64,000 nt of DNA, taken from Candidatus Roizmanbacteria bacterium RIFCSPLOWO2_01_FULL_41_22 (GTDB taxonomy: Bacteria; Patescibacteriota; Microgenomatia; UBA1406; GWC2-37-13). The stretch is from positions 35,981 to 99,980 of the forward strand of contig MGAR01000018.1 of assembly GCA_001789805.1 (NCBI GenBank), given 5' to 3'. Shown in pieces: positions 59,469 to 64,000 of the stretch. Every line of letters begins with the position of its first letter. Within the stretch, counting starts at the first letter, position 1. The notes beneath the pieces were generated by a model that was not told the DNA's origin, ran no database searches, and worked only from the letters and a program-made list of their open reading frames with translations. The position numbers and the translations under genes are program-made.

Positions 59469-60696
59469 GTTTTTCTAAGTACGGCTTATTAATTGAATCC
59501 TCCAATATCTGCCAGCGCTTTTTTTTAATGTGGTGTGGGACATCGTCTTTCATCACTTTTGTCGCGGCGGTCATATACCGCTCAGAATATCTTGAAATAT
59601 ATGCTTTTTCAAACCCGACTTCACGGGCAAGTTTAGCTGTGTTTTGAAATTCTTCCTCGGTTTCACCGCAAAATCCGACAATGATGTCTGTTGTGATTTT
59701 AATATTTGGGATTTTGGATTTGAGTTTTGAGATTATCTTGAGGTATTCTTCCCGCGTGTACCATCTGTTCATCCGCTTCAGAACATTATTGTCTCCTGAC
59801 TGCACCGGAAGATGAATCGTCCGGGTAATATTTGGATATTGGGCAATCAGGTCTATGAGTTCATCTGAAAAATCCCAGGGGTTAGAAGAGATGAAATCAA
59901 CATTTTCAAAATCCATTTTTGCAACATCTTCAAGAAGATAAGGGAATAATGTTGGAATACGATGTCGCCCCAGATGTTTTACATACACAGGCTCAACAGT
60001 ACGGCCATTGTAGGTAAATTTGGCACGGATGGTAGAAACATCAAGTACTTTTGACTTCTCAAAATAGGTAGTGTCAATATCTCTTATCACTTGGATATTC
60101 TCTTTCCCCATGATCAAATCCGCTCCATAAGAATTTACATTTTGTCCCAGAAGCATCACTGAAGTATATCCTTTGGCTTTCAAATGTATACATTCCTCGA
60201 TGATATCTTCATACGGTCTGCTGATTTCACGGCCGCGGGTAAATGGCACAATACAAAAGGTACAAAAATTGTTACAGCCATTGGAGATAGGGACCCACGC
60301 ATGAGTCTGGCTTTGCCGCACCGGAACACTATCAAATCCAACCTCTTCTATCGGCATAAACTCATCAACCTCCGGCATCCGATCGCGTATTTTGGATAAA
60401 AATTTTCCGGTTTTGTCACGAAATGCGATGCCGACCATGCATCCGGTGACAATAATTTTGAAATGTTCTTGTTTACGTAGTTTGTCTGATTTAATTTTGG
60501 CAAGATTCTGTACCAATCCATAGACCCGCTCTTCAGCAGATGCCCTCACCATGCAGGTGTTGATGATGACATAGTTTGCATCTTTGTACCCACGAGCCTT
60601 GGTCATGCCGCGGCTGGCAAATGCCTGCTCGATCCGCTCTGAGTCTGCGACATTTTGCTGACAGCCGAAGGTTTTTATAAAATATTTTAAAGACAT
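59413..60696 (-). CDS. miaB: MiaB/RimO-family radical-SAM methylthiotransferase
   Basis: UPF0004 N-domain (FGCQQN, NTCMVR) and radical SAM GCNNFCTFC. Confidence 0.8.
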   Translation of the reverse strand: MSLKYFIKTFGCQQNVADSERIEQAFASRGMTKARGYKDANYVIINTCMVRASAEERVYGLVQNLAKIKSDKLRKQEHFKIIVTGCMVGIAFRDKTGKFLSKIRDRMPEVDEFMPIEEVGFDSVPVRQSQTHAWVPISNGCNNFCTFCIVPFTRGREISRPYEDIIEECIHLKAKGYTSVMLLGQNVNSYGADLIMGKENIQVIRDIDTTYFEKSKVLDVSTIRAKFTYNGRTVEPVYVKHLGRHRIPTLFPYLLEDVAKMDFENVDFISSNPWDFSDELIDLIAQYPNITRTIHLPVQSGDNNVLKRMNRWYTREEYLKIISKLKSKIPNIKITTDIIVGFCGETEEEFQNTAKLAREVGFEKAYISRYSERYMTAATKVMKDDVPHHIKKKRWQILEDSINKPYLEKLKHSSTGQSLLSAKGGKR

Positions 60697-60700
60697 GTGT

Positions 60701-61516
60701 CTATTCTAGCGGACTTTTAATGTTTTTGAGTTTCGGATTGGCCACATGCGTATATATTTGAGTTGATCTAATATTTTGATGACCAAGCAACTCTTGGACA
60801 TACCGTACGTCAACTCCGTTTTCCAAAAGATGCGTGGCAAAGCTATGGCGAAGGCTATGAAAGGTTGCGTCTTTATTAATCTCGACTTTTCTTACTGCTT
60901 TTTCAAAAACCTTTTGCGCAGTCCTGGTGGTTAGTTTTCCACCCCTTTCGCTGGCAAAAACAAAGTCGTCGATTTTCTTGCCGGCAATCAAATTTTTAAG
61001 CCCGTCAACCATTTTTTCCGGCAAAACACTGATTCTATCTTTTTGCCCTTTTGCCTGTTTGATATGAACGGTTAACTCCAACAGGTCAACATCTTTGACT
61101 TTCAGGGAAACAGCTTCGCTAACCCGAAGGCCAGCTCCATAGGAAAGCGATAATAATAGTTTATGTTTCGAATTTTGTATTGAGCCTAAAATACTATCAA
61201 TTTCATTTCTGGATAATACAACAGGCAGACTACTTGATTTTTTTGCAGATCGAATATCAATTTTCGAGGTTGTTCTGATGACTTCCTGATAAAAAAACTT
61301 GATAGCGCTTAAAAATATATTTCTGCTCTGGGGAGAAGTCCCTTTTTGCTCACGTTGTAATAAAAAGTTGCGAATATTTTCTTGATTAAGTATTTCTAAG
61401 TTGTCTTTCTTAAAGACTAAATATTCTTGCAAGCCATAAAGGTAACTTTTTACTGTTTTTGGGCTATAATTTCTGATTTTTAATTCTCGCTCTGTTTGCT
61501 CTAATTGTTTTCTCAT
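60701..61516 (-). CDS. IntI-like tyrosine recombinase without the integron-specific insertion
   Basis: R (GLRVSE), K (KGQKDR), HxxR (HSLRHSFATH), H (LLGH) and Y (IYTHV) are all present, with a tail of ...IKSPLE. Start is ATG 61516 or the alternative at 61573. Confidence 0.8.
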   Translation of the reverse strand: MRKQLEQTERELKIRNYSPKTVKSYLYGLQEYLVFKKDNLEILNQENIRNFLLQREQKGTSPQSRNIFLSAIKFFYQEVIRTTSKIDIRSAKKSSSLPVVLSRNEIDSILGSIQNSKHKLLLSLSYGAGLRVSEAVSLKVKDVDLLELTVHIKQAKGQKDRISVLPEKMVDGLKNLIAGKKIDDFVFASERGGKLTTRTAQKVFEKAVRKVEINKDATFHSLRHSFATHLLENGVDVRYVQELLGHQNIRSTQIYTHVANPKLKNIKSPLE

Positions 61517-61619
61517 TATTGTTTTGAAATATGTTAAAATACAGTCAGTTTTTATATGATTTAAGATTAACATAATATGGTATATTATACAACATTGTAA
61601 TTATATTACGAATACTATT

Positions 61620-61640
61620 CGTATAATAACGAGTTATACG
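61620..61640 (+). other. attI-like site
   Basis: CGTATAA-TAACGAG-TTATACG inverted repeat containing GTTATAC (61633-61639). Adjacent palindrome ACGAAT-ACT-ATTCGT (61608-61622). Confidence 0.5.
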
Positions 61641-61678
61641 CCATTCCATTTTTTAATTATTTGTAATAAAATCCAAAT

Positions 61679-62413
61679 ATGTGTACAACAGCCGCTAAAC
61701 AATTAAACGACAGTTGGTATCTTCTCAAAACTAGAGATCCAGTACCTTGGATGAGATGGGACGATGAAATAAAACTTTTCGATTCTAAAGCCGACAAGTT
61801 TAAAAAACTTATCATTCAAAATCCTGATCCTCACGAAGATGGTTACTACGGCGGAATTAATGGAAAAGGCGTTGCTTACGTATCGACTTTTGTCCGAGTT
61901 GCTGAAAATCAAGTTTCCTATATTCGGAGACCTTATGTCCGTCTGATATTAGATGCTTCAACCGCCAAAGAAGCTGTCGAAATCATCAAATCCTTCAACC
62001 CTCGGATCGGCGGAAATATGTTTGTGGCCGACCCTAAAGAGTGTTATGGAATTGAAGGTGTGCCAGAAAAATACCTTATTGAGAAAGTTAGTGAACCAAT
62101 GGTGAAGACCAACCATTTTGTTAACTTACCGAATAGGAATCTGGGATTTGATGAAGAAGAAAATTTTGAAAAATGGTCTTATGACCATTATGTTAGGGCA
62201 GAAGAATTAATTTCGACAGCTAATAGCTTAAAAGATTTTCAGCAACTCTTGCAGGATAGAAAGAACGCTGAAAAGAAGACAGCAATTTGCACAACGAAAG
62301 AGGAAGATGAGTGTTTTACGCATTCCGCCTTTATCTTTGATACAAAGAATCGAAAAGTTTTTTACTCCCAAGGCAACCCGTTGGAAAATGAGTTCAAGGA
62401 ATTTGGATTTTAA
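61679..62413 (+). CDS. Cassette 1: Ntn-hydrolase-like protein (C45/C59-type, N-terminal Cys)
   Basis: Starts MCT... (Cys2 as putative nucleophile). GGINGKGVA and the overall size resemble acyltransferase/choloylglycine-type Ntn hydrolases. Confidence 0.5.
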   Translation: MCTTAAKQLNDSWYLLKTRDPVPWMRWDDEIKLFDSKADKFKKLIIQNPDPHEDGYYGGINGKGVAYVSTFVRVAENQVSYIRRPYVRLILDASTAKEAVEIIKSFNPRIGGNMFVADPKECYGIEGVPEKYLIEKVSEPMVKTNHFVNLPNRNLGFDEEENFEKWSYDHYVRAEELISTANSLKDFQQLLQDRKNAEKKTAICTTKEEDECFTHSAFIFDTKNRKVFYSQGNPLENEFKEFGF

Positions 62414-62477
62414 ATATTTAAGGTAAAAAAATGGAACGTCTCCGCTGGCGCTCCGACCACGCTGCGCTCTTCGGGGC

Positions 62478-62593
62478 GTATAACACAGTATATCTGGAGA
62501 GTGCCTCAGCTCGGCACTCTCCCATATCCCGCCAAAATCTAATAAAATAAATCAAGGTATCGGTGGGACATCAGATATACTGAAACGTTAAGT
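62478..62593 (+). other. attC-like site 1 (116 bp)
   Basis: R''-like GTATAAC ... R'-like GTTAAGT. An 11-bp stem CAGTATATCTG/CAGATATACTG plus two inner hairpins. Confidence 0.65.
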
Positions 62594-62625
62594 GAAATTT
62601 GGCTCGAGACATCTAACCCTAAAAT

Positions 62626-63066
62626 ATGAGCAGAAAAATTTCTAAATACAGAAGTGAAGTAATAGAAAAATTCATAAATATTGAATCGTTGATGAATGCA
62701 ATTATCTCACAACACTACTTTAAAAAAGTGATCGCCCCTTTTGTTTTTGAGCTTCTTTACGATGTTAACTGCACTTTTGCCCTAAAAAGAAACATTTTAC
62801 AAAAAATTGAACCAAACTTTTCAAAACTAGAAACAATCAATCGTCTAAACAATATCAGAAATCTTTTTGCTCACTGTAATCAAGAAGTGTTTGAAGGCAG
62901 TAAGAAACCTGCCCCTGGAGAAACAGGCAAAGTCCTAGATCCCAAAGACACAAAGAAGGAATTAGATTTTGAAAAACTATATAAGGAGTTCACAAAGGAA
63001 GAAGGAAGCGTCACGCAAGCACTAGGAAACTTATACATGTCTTTGGGCGGTCAAATGGAAAAGTAG
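62626..63066 (+). CDS. Cassette 2: HEPN-domain protein (MtlR-like, Rx4H)
   Basis: LNNIRNLFAHC carries the R-x4-H HEPN motif in an all-helical 146-aa protein. Confidence 0.6.
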   Translation: MSRKISKYRSEVIEKFINIESLMNAIISQHYFKKVIAPFVFELLYDVNCTFALKRNILQKIEPNFSKLETINRLNNIRNLFAHCNQEVFEGSKKPAPGETGKVLDPKDTKKELDFEKLYKEFTKEEGSVTQALGNLYMSLGGQMEK

Positions 63067-63082
63067 TCTCTCGCCAAACATC

Positions 63083-63387
63083 ACTTAACACGGGCTAGCC
63101 GGTTCGCAAACCTCGAGTATTAATAATTTTTTTATAATCATTATGAGAAAAATACTAAAAATGATCTTTGCTGCTCTAGCAATTTTGGCAGTTTTTTTCC
63201 TAAGTGGAACACTTCTTGATAACCTTATTTTAAGACTCGATAGTGAGGCGGTATTTTTATCAGCACTGTCAATAACTATTATAGTGGTATTTTTGTATAA
63301 AAGGTTTGAGAAATAGCTTATTGTGAGGTTTGCTCACCCAAATTTGTCTCCGCTACGCCAAACTTCGGCTATCCAGAAACGTTATGC
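63083..63387 (+). other. Oversized attC-like site 2 (305 bp) enclosing a mini-ORF
   Basis: ACTTAAC ... GCAAACCTC / GAGGTTTGC ... TCACCCAAATTTGTCTCCGCTACGCC...CAGAAACGTTATGC. The arms are homologous to those of site 63874-63989. Confidence 0.55.
63143..63316 (+). CDS. Small two-TM membrane protein (57 aa; or 51 aa from the second ATG)
   Basis: Own translation: MRKILKMIFAALAILAVFFLSGTLLDNLILRLDSEAVFLSALSITIIVVFLYKRFEK. Confidence 0.45.
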   Translation: MRKILKMIFAALAILAVFFLSGTLLDNLILRLDSEAVFLSALSITIIVVFLYKRFEK

Positions 63388-63420
63388 GAAATAGAAAAAT
63401 TTTTTTATAATTAAATCAAT

Positions 63421-63855
63421 ATGAACGAACAATTACCAAATGCGGAATCAAGAGAAACTCCAAAAACAGTTTTGGATTACCTTTGCAACAAACACTCAAC
63501 TATTGCCAATGATTATCGAGCACCAGATGGTCGTTACTCTGAACATTGTGGTTTGATTGCAATCGATATTGCAAAGTTACTTCTTGCCGCTGGCAGGCAA
63601 CCATATATAGCAAAAGTTTCAGAAGATGTTCGCGAAGGTAGTGTTATCCGCTCAAAAACACTAACACCAACAATATACGAAGGCAGAGTAACATGGGGCG
63701 CCCATCAAGTTTGTTGCTGTAATGACCAAGCATTTGATCCAATGCTAGACAGACCAATTGCTATTAATGACTACACCAAAACTATTTTTGGAGAAGACAT
63801 TAAAATGGAAATCTTGATTCCGCACGAACAAATAGAGGAATTTATTAATAGGTAG
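63421..63855 (+). CDS. Cassette: hypothetical protein (144 aa) with Cys/His pattern
   Basis: EHCGLIAIDIAKLL ... WGAHQVCCC ... D suggests a possible papain/transglutaminase-like Cys-His-Asp arrangement. Weak evidence. Confidence 0.5.
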   Translation: MNEQLPNAESRETPKTVLDYLCNKHSTIANDYRAPDGRYSEHCGLIAIDIAKLLLAAGRQPYIAKVSEDVREGSVIRSKTLTPTIYEGRVTWGAHQVCCCNDQAFDPMLDRPIAINDYTKTIFGEDIKMEILIPHEQIEEFINR

Positions 63856-63873
63856 AAAATTTTTTTCTACATC

Positions 63874-63989
63874 GCCTAACAGCGTGTATGCGGTTCAAGA
63901 AAAAGTGCGTTAAATAATTTTCAAAGGTTGCACTTTTTCTTTCACCCAAATTCGCCTACGGCGAACTTCTCATAATCCTGACGTTATAT
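63874..63989 (+). other. attC-like site 3 (116 bp)
   Basis: GCCTAAC ... AAAAAGTGC/GCACTTTTT 9-bp stem ... TCACCCAAATTCGCCTACGGCGAACTTC...CTGACGTTATAT. Confidence 0.65.
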
Positions 63990-64000
63990 GGAATTGCTCT

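Follow-up and report, generated by a model that had tools for sequence, protein, structure and literature searches.

The DNA analysed here, a stretch of 64 kb hereafter called the window, comes from a genome of Candidatus Roizmanbacteria among the Rifle aquifer metagenome-assembled genomes (MAGs) and carries, towards its end, a tyrosine recombinase gene, a core recombination site next to it and a short array of gene cassettes separated by structured sites. Together they most probably form a recombinase-linked gene-cassette platform functioning like an integron. A first-pass annotation of the window had proposed as much, namely a divergent IntI-like recombinase accompanied by an integron-like array of cassettes in a genome resembling those of the Candidate Phyla Radiation (CPR), as that of Candidatus Roizmanbacteria proves to be, and the proposal stands with qualifications. 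The system is integron-like, yet no canonical integron, because the enzyme is devoid of the I2 domain and scores below the cut-off of the IntI model; besides, its sites belong to a distinct family, branched and more conserved in sequence. A far wider proposition can only be put forward tentatively, at somewhat less than an even chance, that is, all CPR may carry an I2-less integron in which one conserved Xer-like recombinase captures, excises and reshuffles cassettes via previously unrecognised folded sites. The argument is essentially comparative: as far as aligned sequences can tell, it establishes the linkage of sites and recombinase, their orientation, the crossover point, the complementarity of the R'' and R' boxes, the covariation of the L stem and the insertion and reordering of cassettes.

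Regarding the primary site, which is both attI-like and dif-like, a core of the general form TTCGTATAA-nAACGAG↓TTAnnnGAAAT (the arrow marking the crossover) is shared by the window with most of the 80 related loci compared, which come from species-representative genomes, encode recombinases that are 57-76% identical and were oriented like the window (handles such as L088 designate individual loci or contigs). The consensus over 61 loci reads tTcgtATAaaAAcgA followed by GTTat.tgaAAT, with the G at a median of 114 nt upstream of the start codon. In keeping with a tyrosine-recombinase core such as dif or an attI simple site, two inverted 9-nt arms flank a 7-nt centre (TTCGTATAA - 7 nt - TTATRTGAA) and agree at 5.5 of 9 positions on average, more in the consensus. 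Beyond G↓TTA, the sequence differs between genomes, and strains diverge exactly after the G. The arrays are assembly breakpoints in many CPR MAGs: contigs are cut within 8 kb on the array side in 48 of the 80 loci, at a median of 808 nt from the gene, compared to 26 loci and a median of 3299 nt on the opposite side, and six contigs stop at most 5 nt after the primary-site G. The exact 27-mer of the window primary site found no match in metagenome contigs, though it is present in L001-L006. Some 45 nt gene-side of the primary site, most of the 80 loci have a conserved box, ATGGTATATTATACAA in the window and TTTCGTATAATATACAA in relatives, which may be a second copy of the left-arm motif, a -10-like TATAAT directed into the array, or both; a promoter scan lists TTAAGA-16-TATTAT at 61561-61588, no better than chance, and promoter and terminator counts in 61400-64000 are no higher than the shuffled expectation. 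In L084 (+50..+80 and +757..+790), a primary and a secondary site are of a variant type with a longer centre (TTCGCATAA-GCATGGGCA-TCGTGTAAAAT), which hints at co-evolving recombinase/site subfamilies.

The sites bounding the cassettes follow a single plan. A crude first scan for an AAC-L''...L'-GTT architecture recovered about 70 of them, with the common arrangement (c/g)aTCrYrT-AAC-A-(L'' 12 nt)-hairpin-CCCAAAT-hairpin-AAC(T/A)TC-(L' 11 nt)-AAAC-G↓TTAnnnGAAAT. A covariance model (R1) was then derived from a 41-site alignment, composed of sites of other genomes and of the first window site (site 1). In the 64-kb window, it has three matches only, all on the + strand and inside the array; in 927 kb of related sequence (81 loci), it has 129 matches at E<=0.01, 128 of them being located on the array side and on the strand that does not encode the recombinase. 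Because of this confinement, in the relatives as in the window, the sites are not genome-wide REP (repetitive extragenic palindromic) elements, the outcome that the first-pass annotation had itself named as damaging to its proposal. Where the full 8-kb flank is available (n=32), at least one site is found in 28 loci and at least five in 7. Within the sites, the L'' and L' boxes form a stem under evident constraint: 8 of the 10 pairs predicted in the 41-site alignment show compensatory changes, and over the 129 sites 93% of the cells pair (24-41% in slid controls), with 384 double changes vs. 122 in shuffles. The unpaired centre is asymmetric in most sites, with A opposite AAAC (1 vs. 4 nt). 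Landmarks of attC, i.e. extrahelical L-box bases and a roughly symmetric central spacer, are not present in the family. Rfam 15 was searched with the window, using the gathering threshold, with positions 60500-64000 at a limit of E<=10, and with six loci of relatives; apart from tRNAs the matches were noise, and neither the site family nor the ORF-less modules described further below match an Rfam 15 family.

The integron cassette rule, according to which the R'' of a site complements the start of its own cassette, holds statistically over the roughly 100 cassettes of related genomes. When the R'' flank is reverse-complemented and compared, over 101 units bounded by sites, with the R' flank at the start of its own cassette, the six variable positions all agree in 40 units and five of them in 21 more, whereas the adjacent R', taken as a control, is matched at all six in 2 units only (Wilcoxon p=3e-12); the crossover is thereby placed directly to the left of TTA or at TTA itself. 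Pairing goes on through positions 14-25 in about half of the cassettes, which thus have terminal inverted repeats some 25 nt long; a conserved 2x2 mismatch outside the R box (GAAAT opposite ACATC) breaks these repeats. In the window, the three complementary pairs of 7-mers from which the first-pass annotation had deduced the rule are all in place, namely GTTATAC (61633-61639) with GTATAAC (62478-62484), GTTAAGT (62587-62593) with ACTTAAC (63083-63089) and, at 6 of 7 positions, GTTATGC (63381-63387) with GCCTAAC (63874-63880), as is the next crossover, GTTATAT, at 63983-63989. The complementarity is real and longer than first noted, the cassette ends being among the longest inverted repeats in 61500-64000: 17 nt at 82% for cassette 1 (61626-61642 / 62475-62491, the 14th-longest pair listed in that interval), whose start GTTATACGCC is complementary to GGCGTATAAC at 62475-62484, 24 nt at 83% for cassette 2 (62587-62610 / 63066-63089) and 25 nt at 80% for cassette 3 (63381-63405 / 63856-63880). 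Cassette length across the loci ranges from 361 to 1990 nt, with a median of 789 nt, and the longest open reading frame (ORF) of the cassettes points away from the recombinase in 60 of 61 cases. The products fall into 48 Pfam families, each seen once, e.g. SDR, peptide deformylase, deaminase, NUDIX, methyltransferases and transporters.

Contigs that share one and the same recombinase give the view of cassettes on the move. Among the four compared that encode an identical recombinase P0003, L090 differs from L088 by one additional unit of 420 nt, composed of a 131-aa ORF and a site and inserted exactly at ...AAAACGAG↓TTA, and L088 and L089 are 99.9% identical through the first cassette before diverging right after the ...GAAATG↓TT of its site. 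Ten contigs with an identical recombinase P0009 have the flank murD-murC-rplS-rluD-ftsH in common and exhibit the arrays attI-A-B, attI-B-A, attI-B-others and attI-C, with every junction at G↓TTA; cassette A is 99.9% identical over 1026 nt in the swapped orders, and three different first cassettes adjoin the same primary-site G. At a larger distance, one cassette is 84% identical at the nucleotide level between L055 (inner position) and L084 (first position), the recombinases of which are 56% identical in amino acids. The insertions come with no target duplication and no transposase. Read from the sequences, these patterns are signatures of primary-site insertion, excision, reshuffling and horizontal transfer; the invariant gene order that the first-pass annotation had listed as another adverse outcome is not what related genomes display, since their cassettes turn over. 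Besides, in L092 (675-886 and 2753-2859, + strand of the locus; P0009 recombinase), two outer cassettes (CYTH/PRK and Ser_hydrolase) are inverted together with their sites, which suggests that inversions between oppositely oriented half-sites occur.

The recombinase is a complete protein with Pfam Phage_integrase (5e-45) and SAM-like N domains. The top NCBIfam model is TIGR02249 'integron integrase', with 215.9 bits for a cut-off of 265 and a match in two stretches, nearly equalled by XerA_Arch (213 bits, cut-off 220), while PRK15417 yields 140.8 bits for a cut-off of 435. The best solved relative in the PDB is the Vibrio integron integrase VchIntIA (2a3v), to which it aligns in two pieces, residues 200-217 of the query (17 aa) standing opposite residues 186-245 of the chain (59 aa); the alignments to the XerA structures 4a8e and 5hxy run end to end. 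The AlphaFold model, predicted from a 34-sequence alignment, has a mean pLDDT of 64 and drops below 50 at residues 187-219, which is too low a quality for comparing folds. Homologues at E<=1e-30 number more than 6000 in the database, almost all from Patescibacteria; the best 120 of them are about 270 aa long and 68-81% identical, the named ones originating from many Patescibacteria classes. On these matches, the enzyme is a member of a CPR-wide Xer-related family, IntI-like in sequence and without I2. It most likely belongs to the 'Cand' subgroup, the description of which it fits and under which Xer-related recombinases of candidate phyla were gathered with a presumed Xer function and no mention of cassettes (Smyshlyaev et al., 2021; PMC8138268). 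No second tyrosine recombinase is found in the 64-kb window. In some loci, a tRNA gene is located directly downstream of the recombinase gene (L040 8966-9052; L013 2821-2906). A CPR-type recombinase (62% identical) with a primary site also occurs on a 1.39-Mb contig labelled Candidatus Altiarchaeales archaeon IMC4 (L058, MCBF01000001.1), and many other loci, including L009, L010, L012, L027 and L033, bear the labels Gammaproteobacteria, Pseudomonadales, Bdellovibrionales etc.; all of these are probably mislabelled or mis-binned CPR contigs.

The window array itself is short, put at 5 cassettes in the overall count, and partly degenerate; the window holds three complete cassettes and the beginning of a fourth, with all ORFs on the + strand (Table 1). 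The product of cassette 1 matches Pfam AAT (1.6e-15) and NCBIfam C45_proenzyme (2.3e-17). Site 1 encloses two inner hairpins around CCCATAT, folds as DNA with a z of -4.7 for the bottom strand and -4.6 for the top strand, and has L boxes exactly as in sites of L008, L023, L036 and L075. As first annotated, two sites measure 116 nt each (62478-62593 and 63874-63989), and the arm TCACCCAAATT.. is shared between 63334-63352 and 63942-63960. The second site, which had been drawn as one element over 63083-63387, does exist but is split by about 210 nt holding a 57-aa ORF. Its 5' half contains the outer stem, R'' (63079-63089), L'' (63091-63102) and the 5' arm of hairpin 1, and its 3' half the 3' arm GAGGTTTGC, TCACCCAAATT, L' (63365-63376), AAAC and the G at 63381; the covariance model matches the 3' half only, and cassette 2, once circularised and with the ORF loop of the site removed, folds into the family architecture. 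The intervening 57-aa ORF (63143-63316), hydrophobic and membrane-like, has its own AT-rich leader and sits inside the loop of the first inner hairpin (stem 63106-63114 / 63325-63333), i.e. a gene embedded in a recombination site. The HEPN toxin-like nature ascribed to the cassette 2 product is weakly backed, with an E-value of 0.011 for Pfam HEPN_RiboL-PSP, below the cut-off, and the cassette 3 product matches no Pfam or NCBIfam family. The third site is recognised by the model, but its L stem is poorly paired: it combines an L'' of one site type (AGCGTGTATGCGG) with an L' of another (CTCATAATCCTG), leaving four non-pairs, and the minimum free energy fold does not close that stem. Relatives with the same interior have CTCATACACGC as L'. 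This suggests a chimera that arose when two sites once recombined at a point other than G↓TT, for example within the shared AACTTCTCATA stretch, with deletion of the intervening cassettes. Beyond the window, where the array had been expected to continue, the same contig from other samples has one more cassette, but housekeeping genes rather than a long array come next. This fourth cassette, read in L002 (10616-10965), contains a HicB-like ORF (HicB_lk_antitox, E=1.3e-4) and, in a different frame after it, the last 29 residues of a HicA toxin (HicA_toxin, 27.6 bits). It represents a toxin-antitoxin cassette that has decayed, at the far end of the array. It terminates in the 3' remnant of a site only, ahead of coaBC and other housekeeping genes; the covariance model detects no fourth site in L002.

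Table 1. Features of the recombinase-proximal region, in window coordinates
Feature	Position	Strand	Description
Tyrosine recombinase gene	60701..61516	-	271 aa from the conserved start; open frame extends to 61573
Conserved box	61577..61592	+	ATGGTATATTATACAA (TTTCGTATAATATACAA in relatives)
Primary (attI-like, dif-like) core site	61618..61644	+	TTCGTATAA-TAACGAG↓TTATACGCCAT; crossover between 61633 and 61634
Cassette 1	61634..62587	+	ORF 61679-62413, 244 aa, C45/AAT-family acyltransferase/hydrolase
Covariance match, site 1	62473-62599	+	77 bits; seed member
Site 1, intact, attC-like	62475..62598	+	R'' 62475-62484, L'' 62486-62497, L' 62572-62582, AAAC 62583-62586, G↓TT 62587
Cassette 2	62588..63381	+	ORF 62626-63066, 146 aa, orphan
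Site 2, split	63066..63392	+	halves 63066-63114 (5') and 63325-63392 (3'); from covariance model and fold
Covariance match, site 2	63290-63393	+	30 bits, E 1e-4
Cassette 3	63382..63983	+	ORF 63421-63855, 144 aa, orphan
Covariance match, site 3	63869-63995	+	38 bits, E 1e-6
Site 3, hybrid	63870..63994	+	R'' 63870-63880, L'' 63882-63893, L' 63969-63980, G 63983
Cassette 4 (start)	63984..64000	+	continues past the window; L002 10549-11030

A mechanism can be proposed from these features, in which the cassette unit would be TTA...ORF...(R''-L''-branched loop-L'-AAAC-G). In the free circular cassette, the two ends would pair into an R box of at least 9 bp (GTTAnnnGA / TCnnnTAAC), often extended to about 25 bp, followed by the asymmetric unpaired centre and then by an L box of 11-12 bp closing a three-way junction; once circularised, the cassettes of the window do fold in this way, with R box, bulge, L box and junction as predicted. 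A TATA core common to both brings L' into register with the left primary-site arm, R' aligns with the right one, and therefore the folded cassette site would mimic the double-stranded core site. Recombination at G↓TT would result in insertion at the primary site and in excision between successive sites, hence in the insertion, loss and reshuffling of cassettes. The substrate is presumed to be folded single-stranded DNA, because the L''/L' covariation and the cassette-specific R''/R' pairing make sense only in that form. Since the centres of the primary site (AAACGAG) and of the cassette sites (TGAAACG) differ, the exchange of a single strand resolved by replication is the favoured outcome; such an exchange is that of integrons and of CTX-phi. 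The adjacent recombinase would be the catalyst, its linkage to the sites being universal. As for the strand that folds, the bottom strands of the circularised window cassettes are predicted to fold 2-5 kcal/mol better, which is suggestive only. Cassette expression would presumably proceed from a promoter at the primary site.

Several results weigh against an integron-like function. The recombinase does not reach the curated integron-integrase cut-offs (TIGR02249 and PRK15417), which tells against a canonical integron in particular, and in the 2a3v alignment it has no counterpart of the IntI-specific additional (I2) domain of about 40 residues, whereas that domain is described as necessary for cassette capture and single-strand recombination in the integron literature (PMC7790495). 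Its extreme conservation and near-universal presence in the lineage suit a housekeeping Xer better than a dedicated integrase. With respect to the sites, conserved extrahelical bases are absent from the L stem, which is continuous in the alignments. Wobble pairs (31 GT/TG vs. 49 AC/CA, the innermost G-T position excluded) do not indicate which strand folds, and the hairpins could act in RNA too. Regarding the window array, two of its three sites are degenerate, and in the species of the window the cassette order is the same in every contig read carrying the 144-aa cassette protein (6 shown of 23). As damage affects the terminal site as well as sites 2 and 3, leaving cassette 1 alone with intact bounding sites, and as the order is the same in those contigs, the local array looks mostly fixed and is probably largely fossilised; the evidence for activity comes from the relatives and not from the window array.

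Other explanations account for part of these observations. One is a Xer/dif system, in which the recombinase would be the dimer resolvase, the primary site dif, and the cassettes double-stranded 'dif-modules' or miniature IMEXs (integrative mobile elements exploiting Xer recombination), with double-strand recombination between the L'-centre-R' parts of successive sites and hairpins that are incidental or functional in RNA. The classical dif anatomy of the primary site (inverted arms and 7-nt centre), the register of L' with its left arm, an enzyme of about 270 aa without I2, aligned end to end with XerA and highly conserved across CPR, and the presumption that 'Cand' recombinases replace Xer (Smyshlyaev et al., 2021; PMC8138268) all speak in its favour. 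A double-strand mechanism, however, provides no reason for the covariation of L'' and L' and leaves the match of 9-25 nt between R'' and the own cassette start without one, and the differing centres disfavour a complete two-strand exchange. Moreover, dnaA is found about 6 kb from the recombinase in L088 (3036-4406, array side) and in L067 (12540-13874, other side), so that in these two loci the platform is near dnaA and hence probably near the replication origin, unlike a dif site expected at the terminus. The GC skew of the window is positive and does no more than flatten at the end; the comparison covered the 64-kb window and flanks of 6-10 kb. With the GC skew uninformative and dnaA near the array in two loci, a pure dif-at-terminus reading was not adopted. 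All in all, the Xer/dif explanation appears unlikely, though the roles of resolvase and of cassette recombinase are not exclusive and one enzyme could fulfil both.

A canonical integron with a true IntI and ordinary attC sites would readily explain why the top PDB and NCBIfam matches are integron integrases, as well as the layout of divergent intI, attI, co-oriented cassettes and G↓TT crossover; yet the missing additional domain, the scores below the TIGR02249 and PRK15417 cut-offs, the 1-nt vs. 4-nt centre, the unbulged L stem, the conserved CCCAAAT junction and the three-way branch make it very improbable. Just as improbable are structured intergenic repeats (REP-like, terminator or mRNA-processing elements) or miniature transposons bounded by terminal inverted repeats, in either case unrelated to the recombinase. 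Hairpins on the transcribed strand between co-oriented genes, fold z-scores alike on both strands and the long terminal inverted repeats of many cassettes would suit them, but in the 64-kb window no copy is found outside the array, 128 of the 129 copies in related loci are on the same side of the recombinase, insertion hits the primary site at a single nucleotide, and the order of the cassettes is permuted. The long terminal repeats in particular could evoke MITEs (miniature inverted-repeat transposable elements) or transposons, a reading rejected on account of insertion that is site-specific and involves neither duplication nor transposase.

When the proposed platform is set against known systems, it shares with integrons a divergent tyrosine recombinase, an adjacent primary site, co-oriented and mostly single-ORF cassettes, imperfect-palindrome sites of R''-L''-variable-L'-R' structure with a G↓TT crossover, so that R'' complements the own cassette start, and the insertion at the primary site and reshuffling between strains seen by comparison. 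The site types common within arrays and the diverse or orphan cargo with a toxin-antitoxin remnant further recall sedentary chromosomal integrons in particular. It differs by an enzyme without I2, below the IntI cut-offs, nearly universal and far more conserved (57-81% across CPR classes), by an R box of at least 9 bp, often about 25 bp with the conserved 2x2 mismatch, by the asymmetric centre (1 vs. 4 nt) and the lack of conserved extrahelical L-stem bases, and by a site interior that consists of a conserved three-way junction with the CCCAAAT motif. As with CTX-phi and IMEX at dif, an I2-less Xer-type enzyme would act on a folded single-stranded hairpin of two inverted core-like sites, with a single strand exchange into a dif-like site, and the integrated elements can form arrays. 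Those elements, however, are phages, plasmids and islands of several kb, at the terminus dif and with a two-recombinase system, whereas the CPR cassettes are 0.4-2 kb long, with a single recombinase gene abutting the site and an ordered, reshuffled array. The pdif modules of Acinetobacter plasmids are likewise small gene modules between inverted Xer-type sites, the inward half-sites of which travel with the module; yet pdif are 28-bp double-stranded XerC/XerD sites of conserved sequence and alternating orientation, in contrast to cassette-specific inner half-sites and to structured hairpins in one orientation. Finally, archaeal XerA/dif and 'Cand' have in common with the present system the protein length, the domain layout, a single recombinase and a palindromic core site, but their described or presumed role is dimer resolution, and no cassette array or structured secondary site has been described for them.

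No description of integrons or cassette arrays in CPR/Patescibacteria was found in the open-access literature. Gain of the I2 helix is considered to have turned a Xer-like enzyme into a cassette-capturing integrase, with no intermediates known (PMC7790495). What would be new here is integron behaviour (G↓TT crossover, cassette rule, insertion and reshuffling) without I2, with a different folded-site solution and lineage-wide. If true, the platform would either be an intermediate between Xer/dif and integrons that has survived, or represent an independent invention of cassette recombination by single strands, and because a natural system would display integron behaviour without I2, the origin of integrons would become open to direct tests, for which the protein and the sites are defined. 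The CPR, a very large part of bacterial diversity that has tiny genomes and is poorly understood, would also be shown to possess a general platform for gene exchange, which would be a main route of gene flux in these reduced genomes. Integron-finding tools in current use may miss such arrays. In a recent survey, most metagenomic contigs with integron-type recombinases were without attC detectable by IntegronFinder, for which novel attC families were one suggested explanation (PMC13323075). The present site family is a concrete example of a novel cassette site and may help to explain such contigs.

Beyond sites and coding sequences, two further kinds of module recur in the arrays. Directly after many G↓TT crossovers stands an ORF-less structured module of about 150 nt (GTTAGCCAACATCGCTACGCTCGTTGGCCAAC-GTGGCTCGACTT...AAGTCGCGCCAC-GTT for example), at up to five copies per array, as in L040 (+114..+265, +1927, +4347, +4990 and +6026, in nt after the recombinase start and in array orientation), and also in L013, L014, L026, L079, L062, L055, L035 and L088. 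It comprises 3-4 hairpins with stems that co-vary between genomes and loops such as TCGCT(A/T)CGCTC, and may be an empty cassette, a second site type or a small RNA. The other module is a conserved 5' segment of about 120-150 nt (...TTGACAGGCTTTTT..AAGGGGTATAAGGTGTTTTCTCCGCTCCGCTACGAAAACGATTTATTTATAAGGGG...) that opens some cassettes in unrelated genomes, be it the first cassette (L066 +104..+250, L048, L025, L062, L054, L065, L028 and L064) or another position (L049 +1496, L041 +6145 and L033 +1945). It includes a TTGACA box as well as a hairpin similar to the second of the inner hairpins in the sites; a role as promoter or leader is conceivable, as is a partial site.

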